From contig JBBIUN010000013.1 in assembly GCA_037440225.1 (NCBI GenBank), positions 10,936 to 74,935 on the forward strand: a stretch of 64,000 nucleotides of DNA, given 5' to 3'. The first letter of the stretch is position 1; every line of letters begins with the position of its first letter. Position numbers and translations under genes: made by a program. This DNA is from Gemmatimonadota bacterium (GTDB taxonomy: Bacteria > Gemmatimonadota > Gemmatimonadetes > Gemmatimonadales > GWC2-71-9). The notes below the pieces were generated by a model. It made no database searches and was not told the DNA's origin. It worked only from the letters and a program-made list of their open reading frames with translations. Shown piece after piece: positions 1 to 54,283 of the stretch.

Positions 1-2
1 GG

Positions 3-110
3 GTCCGGGATGACGGCCAACTTGCCGAGGAGATCGTCTTCGAGACCAATGCGCGGGGCGAGGTGACCCGGTTCAAGCGGAACAGCAATTACGCGACCAA
101 GGTGCGCTAG
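3..110 (+). CDS. 3' end of a gene starting upstream of the window (35 codons; product not assignable)
   Basis: Frame is open from the window edge to TAG 108-110 with GC-rich third positions (...IVFETNARGEVTRFKRNSNYATKVR*). Too short for a family call. Confidence 0.4.
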   Translation, partial: VRDDGQLAEEIVFETNARGEVTRFKRNSNYATKVR

Positions 111-197
111 CTGGCGGGAAGCAGCCTGACTGGTGCGGTTCGGCTACCACGGCGCCGGCGGCGGGTCCCCCGCGGCCCGGGAGCGCACGGGGACGTC

Positions 198-755
198 CTA
201 CGGCTCCCCGGCAGGCCTCTCGAACCGCGCTTCGAGTTCGACGCCCAATCCCTGGGCCATCCGGTTCACGAAGGCGTAATACCCCGTGATGGCGCAGATG
301 TCGTGGATGGCCCGGTCATCGAATCCCGCCTCCCGGAGGCGCTCCACGTCCGCCGCGGTGACGCTGCTGGGGCGTTCGGTCACCAGGATCGCGTACTCCA
401 GCATGGCCCGGTCGGCGGGGCTCAGGTCCACGCTCCGGAAATCGGCCGCCAGCGCCGCCACGAACTCCCGCGCCGCGCCCGCTGAGCGGCCACTCGACTG
501 CAGCAGCTGACGGAGCCCCGCCCCGTGGTGCGCCACTCAGTAGTGGCAGTGGTTGGCGGCGGACACCACCACCGCGATCATTTCCCGCTGGACCCGCGAG
601 AGCGGGCCTGGCCCCCGCATCAGCTCCCGGTAGAACTCGTAGTGCTGCCGCATGATGCGGGGGTGCACGCCGTGGATGCGCACGATGTTGTCCCGGTCCG
701 GAACCCGATCTTCCGGCGGGATGTCTTGGTCCGGGACGTACCGGATGAACGCCAG
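198..755 (-). CDS. AhpD / carboxymuconolactone-decarboxylase-family peroxidase-related protein with in-frame TGA (537-539) at the second Cys of the CxxC motif (C-H-Y-U): candidate selenoprotein
   Basis: Listed ORF 198..536 is only the C-terminal half. My translation upstream in the same frame gives LAFIRYVPDQDIPPEDRVPDRDNIVRIHGVHPRIMRQHYEFYRELMRGPGPLSRVQREMIAVVVSAANHCHY-TGA-VAHHGAGLRQLL..., the AhpD-core NxCxYCxxHH signature. There is no ATG/GTG/TTG in frame upstream. The best start is CTG 753-755, 5 nt after an AGGAG SD that overlaps the TlpA stop, so the start is uncertain. Confidence 0.7.
510..526 (-). promoter_or_regulatory. Candidate bacterial SECIS hairpin for the AhpD-like UGA
   Basis: The mRNA is ACGGGG-CGGGG-CUCCGU (6 bp including one G-U, G-rich 5-nt loop). 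It begins 10 nt after UGA 537-539. Fold not computed. Confidence 0.45.
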
Positions 756-763
756 GCGCGCTC

Positions 764-1303
764 CTACTGGCCCAGGAGGTCCGCCACGAACATGCGGTTG
801 GCGGGCTCCGACCAGTCGGCCTCGAAGGTTTTCTTGCGGATCACGCCACCGCGGTCGATCACGAAACTCTGCGGGACCCCGATCAACTGATAAGCCTGCT
901 GGATGGCGCCGGTGGGATCGTGCCAGATCTCGAACGTGAGCCCGTACTCCTGAGCGAAGGCGTGGATGTCCGCTTCCGCGCCGGCGTCATCAACGCTCAC
1001 GGCCACCACGGCGAGACCCCGCGGGCCTAGCTCCTGGTACAGCCGCTCGATGCTGGGCATCTCACGCCGGCAGGGATCGCACCACGTGGCCCAGATGTTG
1101 AGCAACACGACCCGGCCCCGGTATTCGCTCAGCCGGACGGTCCGCCCCGGCTCGCCCGGTCCCACCCGGCGAGCCACCACCTCCGGTGCCGGGCCGCCCA
1201 CGTCCACCGCGGCCGGCACCTGAAGCCGCGCCAGGCCCAGCACCGCCCCCACGCCGCCCCCCACGCACAAGGCAGCCACGAGGTACCACCGGGAACGGCT
1301 CAC
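764..1303 (-). CDS. TlpA/ResA-like membrane-anchored thiol:disulfide oxidoreductase
   Basis: 179-aa ORF with an N-terminal TM helix and thioredoxin-fold active site NIWATWCDPCRREMP. GTG start overlaps the upstream TGA stop (GTGA). Confidence 0.9.
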   Translation of the reverse strand: MSRSRWYLVAALCVGGGVGAVLGLARLQVPAAVDVGGPAPEVVARRVGPGEPGRTVRLSEYRGRVVLLNIWATWCDPCRREMPSIERLYQELGPRGLAVVAVSVDDAGAEADIHAFAQEYGLTFEIWHDPTGAIQQAYQLIGVPQSFVIDRGGVIRKKTFEADWSEPANRMFVADLLGQ

Positions 1304-1908
1304 CGGATAGCCTCCAGCGCTTCCAAGATCATGGCGTTCGACGGCCGGATCTTATAGTTCACCTCCGTAAACTTCCAGCGCACCACGCCTTGCCGGTCTA
1401 TCACATAGGTCGTGGGATGGGGAATCCCCCGCGGGTCGTCCGGATTGAGCAGCCCGTAGCGGTTGATCACGCGATGCCCCGGATCCGACAGAAAGACGAA
1501 CTCCGGCCGCCGGCCGTCCTCCTGGGCAATCCGATCCGCCATCTTCTGCAGATCGGCCTTGGGATCCACGGACACCGCGAGGATCTCGGTTTCCCGTTTT
1601 TGGGCCGGGGTCAACAGGTCCCTCAGCTCGCCGAGCTGACGCGCGCAATAGGGTCACCAGTGGCCCCGGTAAAACACCAGCACCACGTTCTTGTGGCCCC
1701 GGTAACTCGATAGGGTCACCACGCTGCGATCCAGCGCTTCCAGCGTGAAATCCGGAGCCACATCACCGACCTTGACGCGGTTCAGATCGCTAGGCGGATC
1801 CGTGGGGCCGTCCTTGGGCCCGAGCGCCGGCACCCCCTGGGACCAAAGCTCACCACTCCCCGCCAGGACCAGCACCAGCGCCACCCTCGTCGCCATCGCC
1901 AGAGACAT
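1300..1908 (-). CDS. Secreted peroxiredoxin (AhpC/TSA-redoxin family) with in-frame TGA (1654-1656) at the peroxidatic Cys position (W-U-P-Y-C): candidate selenoprotein
   Basis: ORF 1300..1614 and the tail of ORF 1654..2559 share one frame and are separated only by TGA. The joined sequence is MSLAMATRVALVLVLAGSGELWSQ...[69 protein letters not shown]... ATG 1906-1908 is preceded by GGAGGGAGG. A signal peptide is present. Confidence 0.75.
1623..1639 (-). promoter_or_regulatory. Candidate bacterial SECIS hairpin for the peroxiredoxin UGA
   Basis: The mRNA is UCAGCUC-GGC-GAGCUGA (perfect 7-bp stem, G-rich apex). It begins 14 nt after UGA 1654-1656. Fold not computed. Confidence 0.45.
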
Positions 1909-1928
1909 GGGGCTACCTCCCTCCGCGC

Positions 1929-2156
1929 CTAGGCCACCACCAGCTCCCGCAGGCGCTCCAGCAGTTCCTTCGGCGGCTTCGGCGCCGCCTCTCGCTGCCG
2001 AGCCAGCGCTTCGAGAAAGGCGAACTCGTAGCGGTACTGCGGGTAGCAGCGCGCACACTCGGCCAGATGGGCGGCGATCTCCTCGGTCCAGACGGGATCC
2101 AATTCGCCGTCCAGGTAGTCCCACAAGCGCTCGATCACTTCCCGGCACGATACCAT
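1929..2156 (-). CDS. Zinc-binding anti-sigma factor (ZAS, RsrA-like)
   Basis: 75 aa with the H-x3-C-x2-C motif (HLAECARC) plus N-terminal Cys4. ATG directly abuts the sigma-factor TAG (TAGATG). Confidence 0.85.
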   Translation of the reverse strand: MVSCREVIERLWDYLDGELDPVWTEEIAAHLAECARCYPQYRYEFAFLEALARQREAAPKPPKELLERLRELVVA

Positions 2157-2738
2157 CTAGCCCACCTCCTCCCGCGACCGCAGCAGGCCAGCGTCCTCGG
2201 CGTAGGCCAAGAGGTCCTGCTGCAACAGCCTCCGGCCCCGGAACAAGCGCGAGCGGACCGTTCCAATGGGAACGCCCAGCACGCGCGCTGCCTCCGCGTA
2301 CGATTGGTCCTCGATGTCCACCAACATCACCGCCGTCCGATACTCCTCCGGCAGCTTGGCCAAGGCGCGCTGAATCGCCTCCGCCAAGTCGCTCCGCTCG
2401 AAGAGCGCCCCTTCCGGATCCGCCCCCAGCACGCTGGCGTGGATGCCTGCCGCCGCCAGGGCTTCCAATGCGGCATCCTCCGTGACGACCTCCCGCTCCG
2501 CGCGGTGCATCCCCTTGAGGAAGGCGTTGCGGCAAATCGTAAAGAGCCAAGCCCGGCAATCGGTCCCCATCTCGAACTGATCCCGGTGGGCCAGCGCCCG
2601 GACGTAGGTCTCCTGGACCAGATCCTCGGCGCGAACCGGGTCCCGCGTGAGCGCCAAGGCAAACCGATAGACCGCATCGGCCGCTGCCAACAGTTGGCTT
2701 TCGAACGTGGGACCCGGGGTCTCAGCCATCGTCTCCAC
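2157..2738 (-). CDS. ECF-type RNA polymerase sigma-70 family factor
   Basis: 193 aa with sigma region 2 (DLVQETYVRAL...) and region 4 (EEYRTAVMLVDIEDQSYAEAARVLGVPIGTVRSRLFRGR). Start is GTG 2738 or ATG 2729. Confidence 0.9.
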   Translation of the reverse strand: METMAETPGPTFESQLLAAADAVYRFALALTRDPVRAEDLVQETYVRALAHRDQFEMGTDCRAWLFTICRNAFLKGMHRAEREVVTEDAALEALAAAGIHASVLGADPEGALFERSDLAEAIQRALAKLPEEYRTAVMLVDIEDQSYAEAARVLGVPIGTVRSRLFRGRRLLQQDLLAYAEDAGLLRSREEVG

Positions 2739-2798
2739 CGACTACCAGGAAAATCGCTCCCTCCCTCCGAAGTTCCCGCGGATACGCGGCGTGTCGCC

Positions 2799-4151
2799 TC
2801 AGAGCAGGTACGGCACGTCCGATCCGGTCGTGGGGTAGGCATACAGCTGGTGCTTGAGATCCGAGGCCAGCACTCGGGATCGGATGGCCAGCGCGAAGAG
2901 GTTGATGACCTCTTCAGCGTGCGGCCCGAGCAGGTGCGCCCCCAGAATCCGGTCCTCCCCCTCCGCCAGGACCACCTTGGCCATGGCACAGGTCTCTGCC
3001 ACCCGCCGTGCCGAGTACCAGCCGGAGGTGTCTTGCTGCTTCACGCGAAGGGGAATCCCCTGGGCCCGGGCCTCGGCCTCGGAGAGCCCCACCGCCGCCA
3101 GCGGCGGGATGGTAAAGGCCACGCTCGGCACCCCGCGATAGTCCGGTGTGTGGTTGTTGCCCTCGAGGAGATTGGAGGCCACGATAGTGCCCTGATAGCC
3201 GGCCACCGGGGTGAGCGGCGCGGCCCCGGGCGAAGCCGCCACGTCGCCTGCCGCGTACACCCTCGGGTTGGTGGTGCTTTGCAGGAACGCGTTGACGCGG
3301 ACCCCGCCGCCGGGCTCCACCGCGACCTCCGCAGCGGCCAGGTCGAGGTGTTGGGTGTTGGGCACTCGCCCGCCACCATGAACCACCGCATCGGCCTCGA
3401 TCGCCGCCTTCCCATCCAGCCCGGCGAGTTCGACCCTGAAGCCGCTCCCTCGCCGCTCCACCGCCGTCACGGCCATCCCCAGCGCAAGCTCGACGCCCAA
3501 ACCCCGGGTGTGCTCCACCAGCCGCGCCACCAAGTCCGCATCGAAGCGCTTCAGCGGCTGGCCGCGGCCGATCACGATCGCCTGGGCACCGGCCCGCTGA
3601 GCCACGTGAGCAAACTCGAAGGAGATGTATCCGGCGCCCAGGAACGCCACCCGAGCGGGCAGTTGGTCCAACTCGAGGAACTGCGTGCTGGTCAGCAGGT
3701 GCTCCTCGCCCGGAATACCGAGACGCCGCGGTCTCGCTCCGGCAGCGATCACGAAATGGCGCGCGGTGAGCGTCTGGCCGTCCACCGCCAGCTGATCCGG
3801 CGCCACGAAGCGAGCCGGCCCGCGGTAGCACTCGATCCCGGCCCGCCGGAAGGCCGCGACGCGGTTCTCGGGCACGGGGTCGGTGAAGGTACGCTTGAAC
3901 CGCATCAGCTCCGCCCACGAGATCCGGGTCTCACCGGTGATGCCGCGGCCCTTCAGGCGGCGTGCCCAGTCGGCAACTTCCGCGGCCCCCACCAGCACCT
4001 TCTTGGGATCGCAGCCCCGCAAGGCGCAGGTGCCCCCGAACGGCAATTCGTCTACCACGGCCACCCGCCAGCCGGCCCGCCGGCAGCGGTATGCCGGCGC
4101 CGACCCCCCTGAGCCGGTGCCGATCACGACCAGATCGAAGCTCGCCGTCAC
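2799..4151 (-). CDS. Pyridine nucleotide-disulfide oxidoreductase (glutathione-reductase / dihydrolipoamide-dehydrogenase superfamily flavoprotein)
   Basis: FAD fold DLVVIGTGSGG and redox-active GGTCALRGCDPKK. A second dinucleotide fold is VAFLGAGYISFEFA. GTG 4149-4151 is preceded by AAGGAGA. The longer listed ORF start (4274) lacks support. Confidence 0.9.
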   Translation of the reverse strand: MTASFDLVVIGTGSGGSAPAYRCRRAGWRVAVVDELPFGGTCALRGCDPKKVLVGAAEVADWARRLKGRGITGETRISWAELMRFKRTFTDPVPENRVAAFRRAGIECYRGPARFVAPDQLAVDGQTLTARHFVIAAGARPRRLGIPGEEHLLTSTQFLELDQLPARVAFLGAGYISFEFAHVAQRAGAQAIVIGRGQPLKRFDADLVARLVEHTRGLGVELALGMAVTAVERRGSGFRVELAGLDGKAAIEADAVVHGGGRVPNTQHLDLAAAEVAVEPGGGVRVNAFLQSTTNPRVYAAGDVAASPGAAPLTPVAGYQGTIVASNLLEGNNHTPDYRGVPSVAFTIPPLAAVGLSEAEARAQGIPLRVKQQDTSGWYSARRVAETCAMAKVVLAEGEDRILGAHLLGPHAEEVINLFALAIRSRVLASDLKHQLYAYPTTGSDVPYLL

Positions 4152-4194
4152 TCGCTCTCCTTGGCGTCGCAGGTTTTCTGGCGCGGACGCGGGC

Positions 4195-4533
4195 TCAGCC
4201 GCCCTGCCGCAGCACATGGGCCAAGGCGCCCTTGAGGCTGGCCAGGGCTTTGACCCCCTGCCCCTTGGCCACACTCTCGGCGACGCACGTATCCATGTGC
4301 CCCTGCAACAATTCCACGGCCACGCCGTTGATCGCCTGCTTGACGGCGCCGATCTGGATCAGGATGTCGTCGCAGGAATGGTGCTCGGCGATCAAGCGCT
4401 GAATCCCGCGAATCTGCCCTTCGATGCGCCGCAGGCGATTTTGGATCCGGCGTTCCACCGCCGGCTTCAAGTACACGCTGGGCAAGCAAGTGCGGGCCAT
4501 ACTCTCTGCCGTCGCGTCTGGGGACGCGCCCAT
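4195..4533 (-). CDS. csoR: CsoR/RcnR-family metal- or persulfide-sensing transcriptional repressor (C-H-C type)
   Basis: Carries RRIEGQIRGIQRLI...HHSCDDILIQIGAV...LQGHMDTC (Cys, then His-x3-Cys). An alternative start is ATG 4500 (MARTCLP...). Confidence 0.85.
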   Translation of the reverse strand: MGASPDATAESMARTCLPSVYLKPAVERRIQNRLRRIEGQIRGIQRLIAEHHSCDDILIQIGAVKQAINGVAVELLQGHMDTCVAESVAKGQGVKALASLKGALAHVLRQGG

Positions 4534-7737: not shown

Positions 7738-9360
7738 ATGCTCCCTCAACCTGGTACCGTCACCAACCGGCAACGCGGCCTTCGGCCCGTGGTTCGGGCC
7801 GTGCTGCTCCTGGGAGGGGCCGGTGTCGCCTGGGCGCTGTTCGGTCCCAGCGCCGGGCCACCCCGCCGAGGGCCGATCGCCATCCGGGTCGCCCGCAGCA
7901 AGCCCGTCACCGAGTTCCAATCCGGTGGAGTGCGGCACGTATTGGCGCCCGGAGCGCCGGAAGAGTTGGTACTGGACACAGTCTTCCCCACGCGGCCGGT
8001 CCGGCTCTTGTGGTTCCAAGGCCGCGCCGCTGCCCCCTTGCCGGATGGCGGCTCGGCGGTGCTGGACGGGGCAGGTGGCGTTATCCTGTTCACCCCCCGG
8101 CTGGGGCAGAGCCGGCCGCCGCTCGACGAAGGGCGGGACGTCGTGAGCGTCGCGGCCACCAGGCACGACCTGTGGTTCAGTGACGCCGATGGCATGCTCC
8201 TCCGATGGGACGGAGGAGGTCGGATGGCGCCCGCGCCACCTTCAGCCATTCGGTACCCGGCCGTGGCGGCCGACCCGCGGCGCGACGACCTCTGGCTGGT
8301 GCGCCGGCCAGGGTACTGGGAGTACCGGTTGCCCGACGCCGGGGCCCGGCTCTTGGCTCGCCTGCACGGAGCAGGCGCCCCGCTCGGAGGCGTGGGAGCC
8401 ATGATCGTCCCGCAGGAGATGCTGCTTTTCGAGTTCGCCAACGCGGGCCATATTGCCGTCGCCGGAGACACGGTGTACTTCGCCCCGTTCCTGCGCGATC
8501 AGATCATCGCCTACTCGGCCGCGGGGGACACCCTGTGGGTCACCAGGAGGGAGCTGGCTCAGGACACTCCCCAGCCGCGCTTCGTGCTCGCCGGCCGCAC
8601 GGCGCAGCTGGACTATCACCCGGTCAACCTGGGCATCGTCGTGGGACCGGACGATCGGCTCTACGTACTGAGTACCCCCGGGTTCACTACGACGGAGGCC
8701 CGCCTCGATGTCCTGGATCGGTTCAGCGGGCACCCGCTCCGATCGGTCCACCTGACCGACGCCTTGCCGACGCTTGCGGCCGATCAAACGGGCCGGGTCT
8801 ACGAGCTGAACCCGTTCCGGTTGCTCACCGGTACCGATCCCGCACACCGGCTGCCGTTTGCCGCATTCGACCTCGAGCAGCGTTCCGGCGGCCGCATGAC
8901 ACTCGACTCGTTGAACGGGTCGGTCACGCTCATCAACTTCTGGGCCAGTTGGTGCGGTCCCTGCCGCAGCGAAATGCCCGCCCTCGACAGCTTGCGCCGA
9001 GAGGTGTCTCATCCGGACTTTCGCTTCGTCACCATGAATGAAGATGTGAGCCGCGAAGCCGCCGAGGCCTTCCTGCGAGAGTTCGGCTTCGATTTCCCCG
9101 TCTTGTGGGGCGGCGGGCGCCTGCGGGCCACGTATCACTATACCGGGCTTCCCTTCACCGTCTTGCTCGATCGCCGGGGACGCGTGGTCCAGCGCTGGCT
9201 GGGCTTTGCCGGACCCCGGCAAATCCAGGCCGTGCGGGCCCTGATCCGTGCCGAACTGGAGCGCCTCCCATCGGCCGCGGACCCATCACCTCACGCCGGA
9301 CATCAGGCGGCGTCCCCGGGCCCGTCGTCGCCCGCCGAACCGCACCGCCACCAGCACTAG
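7738..9360 (+). CDS. Membrane-anchored protein with a large N-terminal (propeller-like?) domain fused to a C-terminal TlpA-type thioredoxin domain
   Basis: TM helix VVRAVLLLGGAGVAWALFG. The C-terminus carries LINFWASWCGPCRSEMPALDSL...GLPFTVLLDRRGRVV. Confidence 0.85.
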   Translation: MLPQPGTVTNRQRGLRPVVRAVLLLGGAGVAWALFGPSAGPPRRGPIAIRVARSKPVTEFQSGGVRHVLAPGAPEELVLDTVFPTRPVRLLWFQGRAAAPLPDGGSAVLDGAGGVILFTPRLGQSRPPLDEGRDVVSVAATRHDLWFSDADGMLLRWDGGGRMAPAPPSAIRYPAVAADPRRDDLWLVRRPGYWEYRLPDAGARLLARLHGAGAPLGGVGAMIVPQEMLLFEFANAGHIAVAGDTVYFAPFLRDQIIAYSAAGDTLWVTRRELAQDTPQPRFVLAGRTAQLDYHPVNLGIVVGPDDRLYVLSTPGFTTTEARLDVLDRFSGHPLRSVHLTDALPTLAADQTGRVYELNPFRLLTGTDPAHRLPFAAFDLEQRSGGRMTLDSLNGSVTLINFWASWCGPCRSEMPALDSLRREVSHPDFRFVTMNEDVSREAAEAFLREFGFDFPVLWGGGRLRATYHYTGLPFTVLLDRRGRVVQRWLGFAGPRQIQAVRALIRAELERLPSAADPSPHAGHQAASPGPSSPAEPHRHQH

Positions 9361-9485
9361 CCGCCCGCGCCACGCGGGCCTTCGCGAGCGCCCTCTTGAC
9401 GAGCGCGGGGCGGGCGCGCTTGATATCCAGCAGCCTGCGGAACGTCCCGACTGTCCGGTCTCACATTCAGTGACGAGGTGCCGAC

Positions 9486-12308
9486 ATGACGCAGTCCATC
9501 CGACGGCGGAACGCGGCGACCGTGCTGGCGGCCGCCATGCTGTTCGCCGGGTCCCCGGCGCTCGCCCAGGGGGCCAAGATCACCACACCGAAGGAAGCCC
9601 TGGGCTTCGACCTCGGTGATGACTACCACATGGCTAGTTACCGGCAGCTCGAGACCTACTGGAAAACGCTCGATGCCGAATCCGATCGCATGACCCTGGT
9701 GGACATCGGCCCCACCGCCGAGGGGCGGCGGCAATACATGGCCGTGATCACCTCGCCGGAAAACCAGCGCAAGCTGGATCGCTACCGCGAGATTGCCCGT
9801 CGCCTGGCGCTGGGTGAAGGGCTGACGGACGACGAGGCTCGGGCGTTGGCCCGGGAAGGCCGAGCCGTGGTGTGGATTGACGGCGGGCTTCATGCCAGCG
9901 AGACCGTCGGGTCCCAGCAGCTCATGGAGACGGTCTATCAGATGGTGAGTCGCTCCGATCCAGAGACGTTGCGCTTCCTCAATGACGACATCCTGCTCGC
10001 CGTTCAAGCCAACCCGGACGGCCAGGATCTCGTGGCGGACTGGTACATGCGCGAACCCGACCCCGCCAAGCGCTCCCTGCTCAACCTGCCGCGGCTCTAT
10101 CACAAGTACATCGGGCATGACAACAATCGCGACTTCTTCATCGCCAACATGCCCGAAACCCAGAACATGAACCGCATCATGTTCCGGGAGTGGTTTCCCC
10201 AAATCGTCTACAACCACCACCAGCCGGGGTTCAACGCCACCGGTGGGGTGATCTTCATGCCGCCGTTCCGCGATCCCTTCAATTACCGCTTCGACCCGCT
10301 GATTCCCCTGGAAATCGAGCAGGTCGGCGCCGCCATGCACGCGCGGCTGGTAGCCCACGGCATGCCGGGCTCCGGCATGCGCAGCTTCTCGAGCTATTCG
10401 ACCTGGTGGAACGGCGGCCTGCGCACCATCGGCTACTTCCACAACGTGATCGGGCTGCTCACCGAGATCATCGGCAATCCCACCCCGATCGAGATTCCCC
10501 TGATCCCCGAGCGCCAGTTGCCGAGCGGCGACTTGCCCTACCCGGTGCCGCCGCAGCTGTGGCATTACCGCCAATCCATTGACTACGACGTGGAAAACAA
10601 TCGGGCCGTCTTGGATTGGGCCTCGCGCAACCGCGAGACCTTGCTGTACAACATGTACGTCAAAGCCAAGCGCGCGATCGAGGCGGGAAGCCGCGACTCC
10701 TGGACCATTACGCCCCGGCGCATCGAGGCCTTGCGGCGAGCGGGCCAGGAGGCGTCGGGACAGCGCGCCGGTTCCCGGCAGCTCCCCGCCGAACTCTACC
10801 AGCGCGTCCTGCACGATCCCCGGTATCGGGACCCGCGGGGCTATATCCTGCCCGCGGACCAGCCCGACTTCGCCACCGCCACCAAGTTCGTGAACGCGCT
10901 GTTCAAGGCCGGCGTCACCGTGCTCCGGGCCACGGCACCGTTCGAGGTGGGCGGCAAGCGCTATCCGGCCGGCTCCTATGTGGTGAAGACGGCGCAGGCC
11001 TATCGGGCTCATGTCCTGGACATGTTCGAACCCCAGGACCACCCCCACGACTTCCGCTATCCCGGCGGTCCGCCCATCCCGCCGTACGACATCACCGGCT
11101 GGACCCTGGCGATGCAAATGGGGGTCCGTTACGACCGGATCCTCGACGGTTTTGACGGGCCCTTCGTCCCCCTGGTGTCTCCAGCGTCTCCGCCACCCGG
11201 CCGACTGACCGGCCCGGCGAACCCCGCAGGCTACCTGGTGAGCCATCGTACCAACGACCAATTCATCCTGGTCAACCGCCTGCTGGCGGCCAAGATCCCG
11301 GTCTACTGGCTGAGCGGCGAGCAAACGGCCGAGGGCGACTCGCTGGGGACGGGCGCCATCTGGATCCCCTCCGCCCCGGCCGCCCGCCCCATTCTGGAGC
11401 GCGCCGCCCGGGAACTGGGTCTCACGGTCCACGGCGTGGCGCAGGGGCCGGAAGCCGCGGCTCTGGCGCTCAAGGCGCCGCGCATCGGCGTGGTGGACCT
11501 GTACGGCGGCCTCATGCCCACGGGGTGGACCCGCTGGCTCTTCGAGCAGTACGAGTTTCCCCACGAGATCGTCTATCCTCAGACGCTGGACGCCGGCAAC
11601 CTCAACGCCAAGTACGACGTGCTGGTTTTCCCCGATGGGGCGTTTCGCCGCGCCCGGGCCGCGAGCGCGGCCGGAGAGATGCGCGGCGGCAGCGCCGAAG
11701 GCACCGGCGGCCCCGATCCGATGACCATCCCCGCCGAGTACCGCGGCTGGCTGGGCCGAGTGAGCGAAGAGAAGACGGTGCCTCAGCTCCGGCGCTTCGT
11801 CGAAGCGGGAGGCACCCTGCTCGCCATCGGCAGCTCGACCGACTTGGGGGAGTTGCTCGGCCTGCCGGTCGCGAACCATCTGACCGAAATGGGGCCCGAC
11901 GGCTCCGAGCGCCCCCTGCCGCCTGAAAAATTCTACATCCCGGGTTCGCTCCTGCGGGTGGAGGTCAATCCCAACCACCCGCTCGCCTACGGCATGGCGA
12001 AAGAAGCCACCGTGGTATTCGACAACAGCCCGGTCTTTCGCCTGCTCCCCGACGCCGCGCTACGACGCACCACCGCGGTAGCTTGGTTTGCCGGCACGCA
12101 CCTGCTGCAGAGCGGCTGGGCTTGGGGCGAGCCGTATCTGGACGGCGGCGCCGCCATCGTGGCATCTTCCCTCGGCGCCGGCAAGGTGATCCTGCTGGGA
12201 CCTGAGGTTGCCTTCCGCGGGCAACCGCACGGCACGTTCAAGTTGTTGTTCAACGGCGTGCTGTGGGGATCGGCCGGCGCAGCGCCTCCCGGGCCCGTGT
12301 CTCCTTGA
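9486..12308 (+). CDS. Secreted M14-family metallocarboxypeptidase-like protein (large, 940 aa)
   Basis: Signal peptide present. Zn-ligand HxxE in WIDGGLHASETVG, plus NPDGQDL and GHDNNRDFF motifs. Confidence 0.85.
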   Translation: MTQSIRRRNAATVLAAAMLFAGSPALAQGAKITTPKEALGFDLGDDYHMASYRQLETYWKTLDAESDRMTLVDIGPTAEGRRQYMAVITSPENQRKLDRYREIARRLALGEGLTDDEARALAREGRAVVWIDGGLHASETVGSQQLMETVYQMVSRSDPETLRFLNDDILLAVQANPDGQDLVADWYMREPDPAKRSLLNLPRLYHKYIGHDNNRDFFIANMPETQNMNRIMFREWFPQIVYNHHQPGFNATGGVIFMPPFRDPFNYRFDPLIPLEIEQVGAAMHARLVAHGMPGSGMRSFSSYSTWWNGGLRTIGYFHNVIGLLTEIIGNPTPIEIPLIPERQLPSGDLPYPVPPQLWHYRQSIDYDVENNRAVLDWASRNRETLLYNMYVKAKRAIEAGSRDSWTITPRRIEALRRAGQEASGQRAGSRQLPAELYQRVLHDPRYRDPRGYILPADQPDFATATKFVNALFKAGVTVLRATAPFEVGGKRYPAGSYVVKTAQAYRAHVLDMFEPQDHPHDFRYPGGPPIPPYDITGWTLAMQMGVRYDRILDGFDGPFVPLVSPASPPPGRLTGPANPAGYLVSHRTNDQFILVNRLLAAKIPVYWLSGEQTAEGDSLGTGAIWIPSAPAARPILERAARELGLTVHGVAQGPEAAALALKAPRIGVVDLYGGLMPTGWTRWLFEQYEFPHEIVYPQTLDAGNLNAKYDVLVFPDGAFRRARAASAAGEMRGGSAEGTGGPDPMTIPAEYRGWLGRVSEEKTVPQLRRFVEAGGTLLAIGSSTDLGELLGLPVANHLTEMGPDGSERPLPPEKFYIPGSLLRVEVNPNHPLAYGMAKEATVVFDNSPVFRLLPDAALRRTTAVAWFAGTHLLQSGWAWGEPYLDGGAAIVASSLGAGKVILLGPEVAFRGQPHGTFKLLFNGVLWGSAGAAPPGPVSP

Positions 12309-42709: not shown

Positions 42710-43967
42710 CTAGCCGCCTCGGGGGGCAGCCGGGCTCCCGCTCGCTTCGTGCTCGAGAGCGGGCGGCTCGCGCGCCCGCTCGATCAGCCGCACCGGCCGG
42801 TCGTAGCGAAAGTAATCCCACGCCCACTCCAGCAGCACCGCGACGCGGTTCCGAAAGCCGATGATGTAGTAGAGGTGCACGAAAAGCCAGGTGAGCCACC
42901 CCATCAACCCCTTGAGCGCCCAGCGACCCAGTTGCGCCACCGCATCGTGCCGGCCGATGGTCGCCATGATTCCTTTATCCATATACCGGAAGGCTTCCAG
43001 CTCCTCGCCCCGGACCGCGCGGAGGATGTTCCGCGCCGCCCAGCGCCCTTCCTGTTACGCGCTCGTGCCCCTCGACTCGCAAGTACGGATCCACCCGCAC
43101 CCGCCCGCTCCGCGTGGTGCGAAGTCCGAGGCGGGCCACCAGATCGTTGGGCTTGACCCCCGCAGCCCACACCACGGTCCGCGCTTGAAGGCTCCGGCCG
43201 CCGGAAAACGTGACCAGACCGCCCGTTACCTGTTCCACCCGAGTGCCTAGCCATACTTCGATGCCCCGCTTCCGGAGTCTCGCCTCCGCGTCGTCGCCCA
43301 AGGCCTTGGGAAACGTGGGCAGTACCTGCTCGCGGGCTTCGGCCAGCACGATCCGCACCCGCCCGAGATCCAGCTCCGGGAAGTCCTTGACCAGCACCAA
43401 CCGCACCAGCTCCCACAAAGCCCCCGCGTACTCCACGCCCGTGGGCCCGCCGCCCACGATCACGAAGTTCAACCAGGGCTGCCGCCGGGCTGCGTCCCGC
43501 TCGCGCGCCGCCGCCTCGAAACAGCGCAACACATGGTTGCGCAGCGCCAGCGCCTCGCCCAAGTCCTTGAGCCCGTGCGCGGCCGCGGCCAGCGACGCGT
43601 TGCCGAAGTAGTTCGACGTGCTGCCCATCGCCAGCACCACGTAGTCATAGCCCAACGCTCCGGGCTCCTCCGCTTGCGGAACGCCGCCAACCGGCGCCAC
43701 GTGCACCAGACGGCGCTCCCAGTCCACACCGGTCACTTCGCCCGCCCACACGCGCACGTTGCGCGCCCTCCGAAAGACCGCTCGGATCGGATAGGCGATG
43801 TCGCTGGGGTTGAGCAGCGAGCTGGCCACCTGATACAAGAGCGGCGTAAAGAGGTGGTAGTTGTGCCGGTCCACCAGCACCACTTCGACCGGCCGCCCGG
43901 CGAGCGTGCGGGCGCACGCCAGGCCCCCAAAGCCGGCACCGACGATCACCACCCGCGGAAGCGGCAT
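42710..43967 (-). pseudogene. ndh: Type II NADH dehydrogenase (NDH-2) disrupted by an internal deletion plus frameshift
   Basis: ORF 42975..43967 (RVVIVGAGFGGLACA...VDPYLRVEGHERV) and ORF 42710..42982 (QEGRWAARNILRAV... then FRYMDKGIMATIGR...GFRNR) are the N- and C-parts in different frames. The segment that normally holds the (Y/F)AIGD motif is absent at about 43055. Confidence 0.65.
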
Positions 43968-52819: not shown

Positions 52820-53554
52820 TCAGCGGCCGAGATACTGCTGAAACACCACCATGCCCACCAGCGTCAAGCACACCGCCAGTGCTACGCCCGCGCGACGCGC
52901 CTGGTCGTACGCTTCCGGCAGCAACTCCACCAGCACCATGAAGACCATGGCCCCGGCCGCGAAGCCGATGCCGTAGGGCAAGGCCGGAGCCACAGCTTCC
53001 ACGAAGAGGAACGCCGGCACCGCCATCAGCGGCTGCGGCAGGGACGAAACCACGCTCCAGGCCGCGCACCCGGCGACCCCCACGCCCCGCGGGTAGAGCA
53101 CCGCACTGATCGCCAAGCCCTCCGGCACGTTGTGCACCGCGATGGCGATAGCGATGGCCGCGGCCAGCGAAACGCTCCCGCCGAAGGCCACGCCGACCGC
53201 GACGCCTTCCGAGAAGGAGTGCACCGTCATCACGACCATCATGAGCAGCACCCGCCGGGCGCCTCCGCGCCCGGCGGCGGCCCACCGCAACTGGCATGTC
53301 GCCAGGAGCCGCTGCGTCGCCAGAATGAACAGCACGCCTGCCGTGGCCCCGACGACGGTCTCCCCGGCGCCGTGCCGCGTCCCCTCGGCCACGAGCCCAA
53401 AACTTGCGCCGAGCATGAGACCCGACGCCACGGCGTTGGCCCACGCCACCCCCGCCGGCGAGACGGTACGGACCAAAGCGAAGGGCAAAGCGCCCAAGCC
53501 CGTCGCGGCCGCGGTGAGCAGGGCGTACCAGAACACCAGCGCCGCGTCGGGCAC
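52820..53554 (-). CDS. ZIP-family divalent metal transporter
   Basis: Carries HSFSEGVAVG and AIAVHNVPEGLA. GTG start directly follows the upstream TGA. Confidence 0.85.
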   Translation of the reverse strand: MPDAALVFWYALLTAAATGLGALPFALVRTVSPAGVAWANAVASGLMLGASFGLVAEGTRHGAGETVVGATAGVLFILATQRLLATCQLRWAAAGRGGARRVLLMMVVMTVHSFSEGVAVGVAFGGSVSLAAAIAIAIAVHNVPEGLAISAVLYPRGVGVAGCAAWSVVSSLPQPLMAVPAFLFVEAVAPALPYGIGFAAGAMVFMVLVELLPEAYDQARRAGVALAVCLTLVGMVVFQQYLGR

Positions 53555-54283
53555 TCAGCGAACTCCGCTCGCCAGCACCACGATCCCCATAGCCAGAATC
53601 GCCACCAGGGCGACGCTGGTGGGCCCCGCCTGCCGATAACAGTGCGGCAGCAGCTCAGCCATCACCAAGTAGACCAGGGCCCCTACCGCCACGCCCAACA
53701 CCCACCCGACCAGCGCCGGAGCGGCGGACAGCACAGCGAACGTGGTGACGGCCAGCAGCACCTGGCTGACCCGCGTCGCGCCGGCCGCCGCCACGGCCCC
53801 GCCCAAACCTAGCCCCCGGCTGTGCAGCACCGTCGCAAGGACCGCCACTTCGGCCACGTTGTGGACTGCGATCGCCGAGGCCATGAGCAACCCCAACGCG
53901 GGCGCCAACACCATGGCCACCCCGATCGCGATCCCTTCGGGCGCCGTGTGCAGCATGTTGACCAACAGCAACTGGTAGCCGTAGTCCGGGGCCGTCTCGC
54001 CCAAGCGATTCAAATCCAGCTCCTGCATACCCGCCGCCCGGTGCACCCAGTACAGGAACCCGATGCCCGCCGCTGCCCCCACGGCCGCCCGAGCAGGCGC
54101 CGGCCCGAGACCTGCGGCCATCAGGAGATACGCCCCGCCCAACATCAACCCAGCCGCCACCCCGTTGGCCCAGCCCAGCCAGGACGCCGGCAATCGGCGC
54201 CGGAACGCCACCGGTATGGCGGCCAAGCCCGCAGCAGCCATGGCAACACTCGCATAGGCCAGCACCGCCAGCGTGGGGTGCAC
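53555..54283 (-). CDS. ZIP-family divalent metal transporter (divergent paralog)
   Basis: Carries HTAPEGIAIG and AIAVHNVAEVAV. The second metal motif is degenerate. Confidence 0.8.
   Translation of the reverse strand: MHPTLAVLAYASVAMAAAGLAAIPVAFRRRLPASWLGWANGVAAGLMLGGAYLLMAAGLGPAPARAAVGAAAGIGFLYWVHRAAGMQELDLNRLGETAPDYGYQLLLVNMLHTAPEGIAIGVAMVLAPALGLLMASAIAVHNVAEVAVLATVLHSRGLGLGGAVAAAGATRVSQVLLAVTTFAVLSAAPALVGWVLGVAVGALVYLVMAELLPHCYRQAGPTSVALVAILAMGIVVLASGVR

Follow-up and report, generated by a model that had tools for sequence, protein, structure and literature searches.

The gene at 1300..1908 on the minus strand of the window, as we call the whole 64,000-nucleotide stretch of Gemmatimonadota DNA analysed here, contains an in-frame TGA that is almost certainly a real selenocysteine (Sec) codon with its own recoding hairpin. 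Taken as a whole, the gene very probably encodes an exported, Sec-decoded oxidoreductase that carries a thioredoxin-type U-P-Y-C motif on a peroxiredoxin (Prx)-like scaffold, the UGA being read by means of a downstream SECIS. The selenoprotein family to which it belongs has long been known, and within that family the gene is unremarkable; the understanding of Sec decoding is unchanged by it. What the locus provides is a clean example, drawn from dozens of independent sequences, of how a very short coding-region SECIS constrains both synonymous sites and the amino acid encoded by its loop, together with a single apparent stress operon that contains genes for two selenoproteins.

The complete coding sequence, like all features of the locus described below, lies on the minus strand. 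It extends from ATG 1908-1906 to a terminal TGA at 1302-1300 and specifies, by translation, 202 amino acids including Sec85. A preliminary description of this DNA had recognized two same-frame ORF fragments parted by TGA 1654-1656 alone, which is confirmed: this is the only in-frame TGA of 1908..1300, and the frame is open from 1653 to the terminal codon. The read-through product is a 202-aa AhpC-TSA/Redoxin protein with W-U-P-Y-C, matched by Pfam AhpC-TSA (PF00578) at 1.4e-32 (112.7 bits; cut-off 26) and by Redoxin at 9.7e-23. The ATG at 1906-1908 was likewise correctly described as having a Shine-Dalgarno sequence, since GGAGGGAGG can be read at 1924-1916, with 7 nt between its end and the ATG. 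Approximately residues 1-24 (1837..1908; MSLAMATR-VALVLVLAG-SGELWSQ) form a putative N-terminal export signal, in which a single Arg precedes a hydrophobic stretch, VALVLVLAG, with a Kyte-Doolittle value of 3.0. All homologues aligned begin with a comparable hydrophobic segment that ends in A-Q, and one of them has a lipobox. For P0001, the Cys homologue closest to the protein, AlphaFold models an isolated N-terminal helix of low confidence and, after it, a linker. The signal peptide of the preliminary description thus stands insofar as the N-terminus fits one, while export itself is predicted from hydrophobicity and motif logic, and the function of the protein from motif logic.

The Sec codon (1654..1656) specifies the residue that opens the redox motif U-P-Y-C, an assignment that comes from homologue alignment and from the recurrence of TGA in relatives. 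Full-length homologues of the protein share 50-62% identity with it, and the column at the UGA holds Cys in 27 of the 29 aligned full-length sequences and Trp in the other two. Alignment with Cys-containing homologues, suggested beforehand as a check, therefore agrees with the earlier view that TGA replaces the first Cys of W-C-P-x-C. At the nucleotide level, 73 species-representative genomes have TGA (42), TGC (16) or TGT (15) at the Sec85 codon, and nearly all of the closest relatives (Longimicrobiales/Gemmatimonadota) have TGA; tblastn against Longimicrobiales MAGs gave 60-69% identity spanning it. In metagenomes, YRGxW-TGA-PYC was found at at least 120 loci, every listed match being an in-frame redoxin ORF, and those ORFs among the matches listed that are unclipped by contig ends continue for about 90-220 aa beyond the TGA. 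Wherever the contig allows, conserved sequence continues past the TGA in these genomes and metagenome loci.

Such recurrence bears directly on the suspicion that the gene is a pseudogene or the product of an assembly or sequencing error. TGC or TGT becomes TGA by one base change, and gene callers do split the ORF, as they would if a nonsense change had left a gene dead or mis-read. This reading is effectively refuted by recurrence, since 42 species-level genomes and at least 120 independent metagenome contigs have TGA at this codon, with the downstream half open and conserved, and a TGA-specific downstream hairpin with compensatory substitutions, described below, argues against it as well; we consider it extremely improbable. 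It is hardly more credible that there are two genes here, namely one for an N-terminal secreted peptide ending at the TGA and one for a C-terminal protein beginning at TTG 1614, even though this TTG opens a 104-aa ORF. Each half would be an incomplete thioredoxin fold broken directly before the CxxC helix, in keeping with the earlier remark that neither holds a complete active site, and the 39 nt between TGA and TTG encode 13 conserved residues in frame. Single-chain full-length homologues are the rule.

Reading of the UGA as something other than Sec, whether through an alternative code that makes it Trp or Gly, through a reassigned tRNA that inserts Cys or through simple read-through, might be suggested by the two database homologues translated with W at position 85. 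For one of them, P0005, the DNA of contig L001 has TGA at this W and not TGG, so that the Trp reflects translation with a different genetic code. Moreover, TGA is the commonest normal stop in the window, ending 24 of 44 genes, so that the genetic code is standard, and TGA also terminates 1908..1300 itself. The redox Cys in the homologues at the Sec85 column is a hallmark of Sec/Cys pairs, and relatives encode a selD that requires Sec decoding; recoding of this other kind is accordingly judged very unlikely. In four relatives, 2-3 kb separate this selD from the orthologue of the Prx-like gene, and in all four it has Sec at its catalytic position, so it itself needs Sec decoding. Within the 64-kb window, no tRNAs, tRNA-Sec included, were detected, tblastn with the SelA, SelB and SelD proteins of E. 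coli found no match, and no Sec machinery turned up when 28 further ORFs of the window were scanned with Pfam.

The hairpin UCAGCUC-GGC-GAGCUGA (1623..1639; arms 1639-1633 and 1629-1623, loop 1632-1630) begins 14 nt after the UGA, exactly as the preliminary description gave it, and the distance from the UGA to the loop is 21 nt. Folded alone, it has a 7-bp stem, a 3-nt loop and a free energy of -8.6 kcal/mol. As outlined in PMC13188914, the bSECIS model of bSECISearch calls for a loop of 3-9 nt, a stem of 4-16 bp, a UGA distance of 16-37 nt, G in the first two loop positions and an MFE of -7.5 kcal/mol or lower; with its GGC loop, 7 bp, G at position 1, 21 nt and stated free energy, the hairpin agrees with all four criteria of the model. 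Folding had also been suggested beforehand, but it does not set the region apart. A 71-nt region showed no extra stability over shuffled sequences (z = 0.32) and its MFE structure does not include the hairpin, and synonymous resamples of the hairpin region fold equally well. The sequence is GC-rich and, against this background, the hairpin region is thermodynamically unexceptional; because it folds no better than shuffles or resamples, thermodynamics was dropped as a test and comparative analysis was used. An Rfam search of the whole window at gathering scores returned no family match, and neither a bulged U nor an extended lower stem was detected at 1639-1623 by folding or RNAalifold.

In the comparative analysis, all seven pairs are present in 31 of 43 TGA forms versus none of 31 Cys forms, and synonymous resampling with the protein sequences held gave an expectation of 2.5 perfect hairpins against the 31 observed. 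Hairpin cells are paired in 94.8% of cases, versus 27-49% when the partner is slid, and RNAalifold predicts the same helix. Compensatory changes have occurred at three pairs, with U-A replaced by G-C 15 times and by C-G once at one of them, C-G replaced by U-A or G-C six times at another, and C-G replaced by U-A once at the third. In the loop, the first base is an invariant G and the second is G or U, and the encoded amino acid is Gly or Val in Sec forms, whereas it is variable in Cys forms. Conservation of the hairpin is partly a protein-level matter because it is built from codons of the conserved Q-L-G-E-L, although the synonymous-resampling control argues that this constraint is not the whole cause. 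On the sequences compared, chance is excluded by comparison and not by thermodynamics, TGA and hairpin being found at the same positions in dozens of independent genomes. The alignment of the UGA with a nearly invariant Cys, the recurrence of TGA, the covarying hairpin specific to TGA forms and a second TGA in the operon together strongly support the proposal, made in the preliminary description, that this gene is Sec-decoded and not a pseudogene.

The further claims of that description, that the protein is a peroxiredoxin and that the UGA stands at its peroxidatic Cys codon, did not survive comparison with AhpE. In alignments with AhpE, the peroxidatic Cys of PxxxTxxC (AhpE Cys45) falls on C88, which is invariant in the family, and the UGA falls on the Thr, a position that in a CxxC motif of the thioredoxin type belongs to the first Cys. 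The Pro found 7 residues before the peroxidatic Cys is replaced by the family-invariant Arg81. Arg116 of AhpE aligns with Pro165 of an invariant P-H-P segment, so that the active-site Arg is absent, and an invariant I-P-H-P-T/A-T segment sits before the central strand in place of the Prx Arg. The catalytic set thus lacks its Pro, Thr and Arg; because the UGA is at the Thr position and Pro and Arg are absent, we regard the protein as a Prx-like UxxC oxidoreductase and not as a strict peroxiredoxin. BLASTP with the neighbouring TlpA-like protein aligned WCDPC to W-U-PYC. In the P0001 model (pLDDT 86.5), which is that of a homologue and not of the window protein itself, the active-site helix begins one residue after the first Cys, and AhpE, BCP and Prx1/2 were matched with target-normalised TM-scores of at most 0.84. 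None of the curated NCBIfam selenoprotein models reached its cut-off, NF040737 (PrxU) scoring 41.6 versus 270 bits, the SelL-related NF040769 42.7 versus 120 bits and the WAxxUGC model NF041054 27.5 versus 300 bits; the ResA model NF002854, at 52.2 bits, was also under its cut-off of 170.

A Sec-decoded protein of this kind might still be a peroxidase, with U85 as the peroxidatic residue, oxidised by peroxide to a selenenic acid and resolved by C88. This would amount to glutathione-peroxidase-like chemistry on a Prx scaffold and would give the label "peroxidatic" a functional sense. The nearest structures by both sequence and fold are indeed peroxiredoxins (AhpE, BCP and Prx1/2, TMt ~0.84), and an operon partner is an AhpD-like "peroxidase-related" protein. 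In glutathione peroxidases, too, Sec caps the N-terminal end of the active-site helix. We nevertheless hold peroxidase activity to be rather doubtful, since the protein retains only one of the four catalytic residues of peroxiredoxins (Pro is changed to Arg81, Thr to U85 and Arg to Pro165) and since W-C/U-x-x-C followed, ahead of the central strand, by the proline-containing IPHP(T/A)T is the signature of a thiol-disulfide oxidoreductase. The name used in the literature, "Prx-like thiol:disulfide oxidoreductase" (PMC1794560, PMC13188914), points the same way.

The gene is the third in an apparent operon. The first encodes an ECF sigma-70 factor (2157..2738; TIGR02937, 80.9 bits, cut-off 42.9) and is followed by a gene for an RsrA-like (zinc/thiol) anti-sigma factor (1929..2156; TIGR03988 antisig_RsrA, 2.1e-13, below the curated cut-off), which ends 20 nt upstream of the selenoprotein start. 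On the other side lies a gene for a TlpA/ResA-like thiol-disulfide oxidoreductase (764..1303; ORF list, Pfam and NCBIfam) in the Cys form, WCDPC, and the overlap of its GTG start with the selenoprotein stop (GTGA) suggests translational coupling. Two genes downstream of the Prx-like gene is that of an AhpD-like candidate selenoprotein (198..757; TIGR01926, 130.5 bits, cut-off 81.8) with the motif C-H-Y-U and an in-frame TGA at 539-537. Its start is probably CTG 757-755, which stands behind AGGAG and at which the L030 orthologue has ATG. At 10 nt after this UGA, the MFE fold contains a SECIS-like hairpin, ACGGGGC-GGG-GCUCCGU (510..526), of -9.0 kcal/mol, for which the probability of seven out of seven pairs in register, given the protein and codon usage, is P = 0.002. 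Similar hairpins are found in the orthologues of L030, L109 and L168, and an AhpD-like CxxU gene with TGA occurs near a Prx-like TGA gene at eight other loci.

The neighbourhood of the Prx-like gene varies, being followed by a TlpA-like gene in few loci, by the AhpD-like gene in L030 and by selD in four. In the window, only the two redox-motif cases stand among the in-frame TGA candidates; the pair at 53555-53557 was rejected because it represents two tandem ZIP transporter genes. A promoter and terminator scan of 1-3200 gave matches at chance level.

For the Sec-decoded thiol-disulfide oxidoreductase that we favour, a mechanism can be proposed. During translation, the UGA at 1656-1654 would be read as selenocysteine, with the 17-nt hairpin 14 nt downstream presumably bound by SelB carrying Sec-tRNA(Sec). 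No hairpin of this kind accompanies the terminal UGA at 1302-1300, which would end translation. After its predicted export, the mature protein would comprise about 180 aa. The selenolate of U85, placed just before the first active-site helix, would be the attacking nucleophile and would form a selenenylsulfide with C88, which some electron donor would then have to re-reduce. The activity that we prefer to propose is that it reduces thiols which have been oxidised outside the cytoplasm to disulfides or sulfenates. It would do so as part of a putative redox-stress operon for the ECF sigma factor, the RsrA-like anti-sigma factor, the Prx-like Sec protein, the TlpA-like protein and the AhpD-like Sec protein.

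In public protein sets, this gene and its many orthologues are split, truncated or given Trp in place of Sec, so that annotation largely fails to show a selenoprotein that is abundant in Gemmatimonadota of soil and sediment. No mention of Sec use in Gemmatimonadota was found in the literature searched. A broader and more tentative idea is that Longimicrobiales and related Gemmatimonadota possess a small exported selenoproteome missed by annotation, of which the window would hold one redox-stress operon with a shared minimal 17-nt SECIS. The shared design would be a 7-bp stem with a G-G-N triloop placed 10-14 nt after the UGA in both genes. If true, this possibility would imply a lineage-specific, unusually compact SelB recognition element together with an extracytoplasmic selenium-based defence module.

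By domain and motif, the gene can be placed in the known family of "Prx-like thiol:disulfide oxidoreductase (UxxC)" selenoproteins. Such proteins (pfam00578, UxxC) were listed by Zhang et al. 2006 (PMC1794560), appear as "Prx-like 1" in Table 2 of the GOS selenoproteome (PMC2398784) and are also tabulated in PMC13188914; the reference member is WP_010940744.1. That Prx-like and AhpD-like selenoprotein genes can lie close together in metagenomes has been described before (PMC2398784, PMC13188914). Like this family, the protein has a pfam00578 domain, Sec as the first residue of UxxC and abundant Cys homologues. The clade here differs from the family as described in its predicted export, in an invariant LGPxDG segment that precedes the fold, and in its concentration in Longimicrobiales/Gemmatimonadota and other soil and sediment MAG lineages.

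The archetype of the bacterial SECIS is that of E. coli fdhF. The hairpin described here resembles bacterial SECIS elements in lying inside the gene immediately 3' of the UGA, in its sufficient stability and in its small apical loop, which starts G-G/U and is 21 nt away; unlike the consensus, it is very short, one 7-bp helix with its 3-nt loop making up the whole. PrxU of Eubacterium acidaminophilum (NF040737) shares the AhpC-TSA fold and Sec in the active-site helix region, but in PrxU Sec replaces the peroxidatic Cys (PxxxTxxU), whereas here it lies three residues earlier (UxxC) and Pro and Arg are absent. Among solved structures, M. tuberculosis AhpE, a 1-Cys peroxiredoxin (1xvw, 4x0x), is the best match both by sequence, at 2.7e-20 with the family profile, and by fold, where the P0001 model gives a TMt of 0.84 and an rmsd of 2.5 A. 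AhpE is cytoplasmic and without Sec, and has P-x-x-x-T-x-x-C and Arg116 where the window protein has R-x-x-x-U-x-x-C and Pro165. TlpA, ResA and DsbE are alike in being exported, in their W-C-x-x-C motif and in a proline-containing segment before the central strand, although this likeness is weaker than that to peroxiredoxins, with PDB ResA matched at 4.6e-12 versus 2.7e-20 for AhpE.

The Prx-like gene starts at ATG 1908-1906 on the minus strand, preceded by GGAGGGAGG at 1924-1916, and its frame ends at the terminal TGA 1302-1300, with TGA 1656-1654 as the sole interruption; when this codon is read through, the product has 202 residues. Re-reading of the sequence confirmed all coordinates that the preliminary description had assigned to the gene, the TGA and the hairpin. 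With the stop rendered as Cys, the protein matches the Pfam families AhpC-TSA (1.4e-32) and Redoxin. More than 1,400 homologues were found in a large protein collection; the top-scoring 120 are full-length (~200 aa) and 50-62% identical to the Prx-like protein, the few named among them belonging to Gemmatimonadota and Phycisphaerae. The N-terminus consists of a single Arg followed by VALVLVLAG, an export-signal-like segment that has an equivalent in all aligned homologues and a lipobox in one, and the protein is therefore predicted to be exported. Between the signal peptide and the redoxin fold lies an L-G-P-x-D-G segment (residues 29-34; window ~1810-1822, minus strand), which is invariant in 30/30 aligned sequences and was modelled as a non-regular region.

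The UGA falls in a column occupied by Cys in 27 of 29 aligned homologues, and by Trp in the other two (P0005 and P0045). On the contig of P0005 (L001, 933-935), the codon at the Trp-called position is TGA, and the Trp arises because the gene caller applied a TGA=Trp code to a short contig. Public protein sets hold family members with Trp at the Sec position (P0005, P0045). Sec forms are mostly missing from these sets as full-length proteins, so that protein searches give only Cys forms, at no more than 62% identity, and tblastn gives 65-69%.

Scanning of metagenome contigs for the exact pattern YRGxW-TGA-PYC yielded at least 120 loci. Each listed locus is an in-frame redoxin ORF, which continues for a further ~90-220 aa past the TGA wherever no contig end breaks it. 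At least five redoxin subfamilies that differ clearly from one another carry the motif YRGxW-U-PYC (L002-L121), among them those with UPYCNAELEALQ, UPYCNGQLVSFAR and UPYCRRQLVGF; predicted Sec at this position is widespread, well beyond the clade of the window. Of the 80 best loci in a one-genome-per-species collection, 73 carried the motif, with TGA (42), TGC (16) or TGT (15) as the residue-85 codon. The closest relatives (60-69% identity), from Longimicrobiales and other Gemmatimonadota MAGs, almost all have TGA, and TGA forms were further seen in Binatia, Rokubacteria, Blastocatellia, Udaeobacter and deltaproteobacterial MAGs. With such recurrence across genomes and metagenomes, neither a nonsense mutation private to this genome nor a sequencing error can explain the codon. 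In addition, 24 of the 44 genes predicted in the window end in TGA, more than in any other stop, and so does the Prx-like gene itself, indicating that the organism uses the standard code.

Fourteen nucleotides after the UGA, the transcript can form the hairpin UCAGCUC-GGC-GAGCUGA (1639-1623, minus strand). Its single-sequence stability is unremarkable, since shuffles of the region (z = 0.32) and synonymous resamples fold at least as well, but comparative evidence supports it. In the same register, all seven pairs form in 31 of 43 TGA forms and at least six in 39 of them, whereas none of 31 Cys forms has seven. Across 56 aligned TGA forms, 94.8% of alignment cells are paired, compared with 27-49% when the partner is slid, and RNAalifold recovers the same helix unaided. 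Both sides have changed at three of the seven stem pairs: one went from U-A to G-C (15 times) or C-G (once), another from C-G to U-A or G-C (six times) and the third from C-G to U-A (once). Because the stem also encodes Q-L-G-E-L, a control for protein conservation is needed: when synonymous codons were resampled for each orthologue's own peptide, 2.5 perfect hairpins were expected among the 43 TGA forms, against the 31 observed. In the TGA forms, the loop always opens with G, followed by G or U. Sec forms have only Gly or Val at the loop codon (GGN/GUG), whereas Cys forms have K, T, A, S and others there, which is the expected imprint of RNA constraint. The hairpin conforms on all four criteria to the bacterial SECIS model quoted in PMC13188914 (3-nt loop with G as its first base, 7-bp stem, distance of 21 nt to the UGA, -8.6 kcal/mol). 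The closest Cys form (L204, 523-575) retains six of the seven pairs around a loop, ACG, without the required G; this looks like a SECIS decaying after Sec-to-Cys replacement, and it matches the remnant structures described after such conversions in PMC1794560. Given the recurrence of TGA and a hairpin specific to TGA forms, the earlier proposal of a Sec-decoded candidate selenoprotein with a downstream hairpin is well supported.

On the other hand, the residue replaced is not the peroxidatic Cys, as had been proposed. In single-sequence and profile alignments with M. tuberculosis AhpE (motif F-F-P-L-A-F-T-G-I-C), the second Cys, C88, stands where AhpE has its peroxidatic Cys, and the UGA occupies the catalytic Thr position. 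The catalytic Pro becomes Arg81, and the catalytic Arg (R116) aligns with Pro165 within an invariant I-P-H-P-T/A-T segment, three of the four peroxiredoxin catalytic residues being missing. W-U-P-Y-C aligns with W-C-D-P-C of the neighbouring TlpA-like protein. The closest Cys homologue was modelled with AlphaFold (pLDDT 86.5); in this model the active-site helix begins one residue after the first Cys, and the best structural matches are peroxiredoxins (target-normalised TM-score 0.84 to AhpE). By model and alignment, the protein thus combines a Prx-type scaffold with a thioredoxin-type UxxC centre. Peroxidase chemistry, to which such a scaffold might point, is the less likely reading of its activity; the active-site residues favour disulfide/sulfenate reduction, to which we give slightly better than even chances. 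In the proposed mechanism, SelB with Sec-tRNA(Sec) would bind the 17-nt hairpin while the UGA is in the ribosomal A site, and Sec would be inserted at position 85, as in the established bacterial mechanism. After export, the U85 selenolate would attack an oxidised substrate and form a selenenylsulfide with C88, and the centre would be re-reduced, plausibly via the co-transcribed TlpA-like protein.

The Prx-like gene (1908-1300) stands third in a compact run of five minus-strand genes. It follows genes for an ECF sigma factor (2738-2157) and an RsrA-like anti-sigma factor (2156-1929), and precedes those for the TlpA-like WCDPC protein (1303-764), whose GTG start overlaps the stop of the Prx-like gene, and, two genes downstream, an AhpD-like protein (757-198). 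The frame of the latter is also interrupted once, by TGA 539-537 in place of the second Cys of N-H-C-H-Y-C, and its read-through product scores 130.5 bits (cut-off 81.8) against TIGR01926, listed as a CxxU selenoprotein family, making it a candidate second selenoprotein of the window. Ten nucleotides after its UGA stands the hairpin ACGGGGC-GGG-GCUCCGU (510-526, minus strand; -9.0 kcal/mol), which shares the 7-bp stem and G-G-N triloop of the Prx-like hairpin; given the peptide and codon usage, seven of seven pairs in register have P = 0.002. An AhpD-like CxxU TGA gene also lies near a Prx-like TGA gene in eight other loci. No ATG, GTG or TTG precedes residue 25 of the conserved AhpD-like N-terminus. 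Where the L030 orthologue reads ATG-GCC-TTC-ATT (M-A-F-I), the window reads CTG-GCG-TTC-ATC behind AGGAG (~763-767), and CTG 755-757 (minus strand) is the probable start codon.

Directly upstream of the sigma factor gene lies a FAD-dependent pyridine-nucleotide disulfide reductase (2799-4274, minus), adjoined by a CsoR/RicR-like repressor (4195-4533, minus). The longest reductase ORF overlaps the repressor by 80 nt and family matches start at residue 43, so the true start probably lies further downstream. A 540-aa protein with a C-terminal redoxin/thioredoxin-like domain (7738-9360, plus) and a thioredoxin-reductase-like flavoprotein (42975-43967, minus) are possible partners of the operon. 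Elsewhere, two ZIP-family transporter paralogues of ~242 aa (52820-53554 and 53558-54283, minus) stand head to tail in the same frame with only a TGA between them; a recoded gene was rejected here, as both paralogues cover one and the same stretch of the Pfam profile, which points to tandem duplication.

Within the window, we found no tRNA, no Rfam match and no match to E. coli SelA, SelB or SelD, and a scan of 28 further ORFs returned nothing relevant to Sec machinery. Indirect support for Sec decoding is nevertheless good. Two independent selenoprotein-type TGAs with matching hairpins occur within one operon, and four relatives carry selD at a distance of 2-3 kb from the TGA-containing orthologue (L123, 8612-9670; L147, 5004-6080; L159, ~8670-9600; L019, ~177-1118). 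In all four, the selD frame itself contains a TGA at the catalytic position, SHGAG-U-xCK (SHGAG-U-ACK), so that a working Sec system is required in that lineage. The hairpin downstream of this TGA has an apical GCAGGUC(C)UGC, which we take to resemble the E. coli fdhF SECIS loop.

The protein belongs with the published selenoprotein family termed Prx-like thiol:disulfide oxidoreductase (UxxC). True Sec-peroxiredoxins are of the TxxU type, from which the UxxC arrangement found here is distinct (PMC2398784 Table 2; PMC13188914; PMC1794560). In the literature searched, no paper tied Gemmatimonadota to Sec use. The family, its motif, the AhpD-like selenoprotein neighbour and even their co-location are already described, the pairing of the two genes having been noted in metagenomes (PMC2398784; PMC13188914), while the prevalence of Sec forms in Longimicrobiales/Gemmatimonadota and their compact, uniform SECIS may be under-documented.
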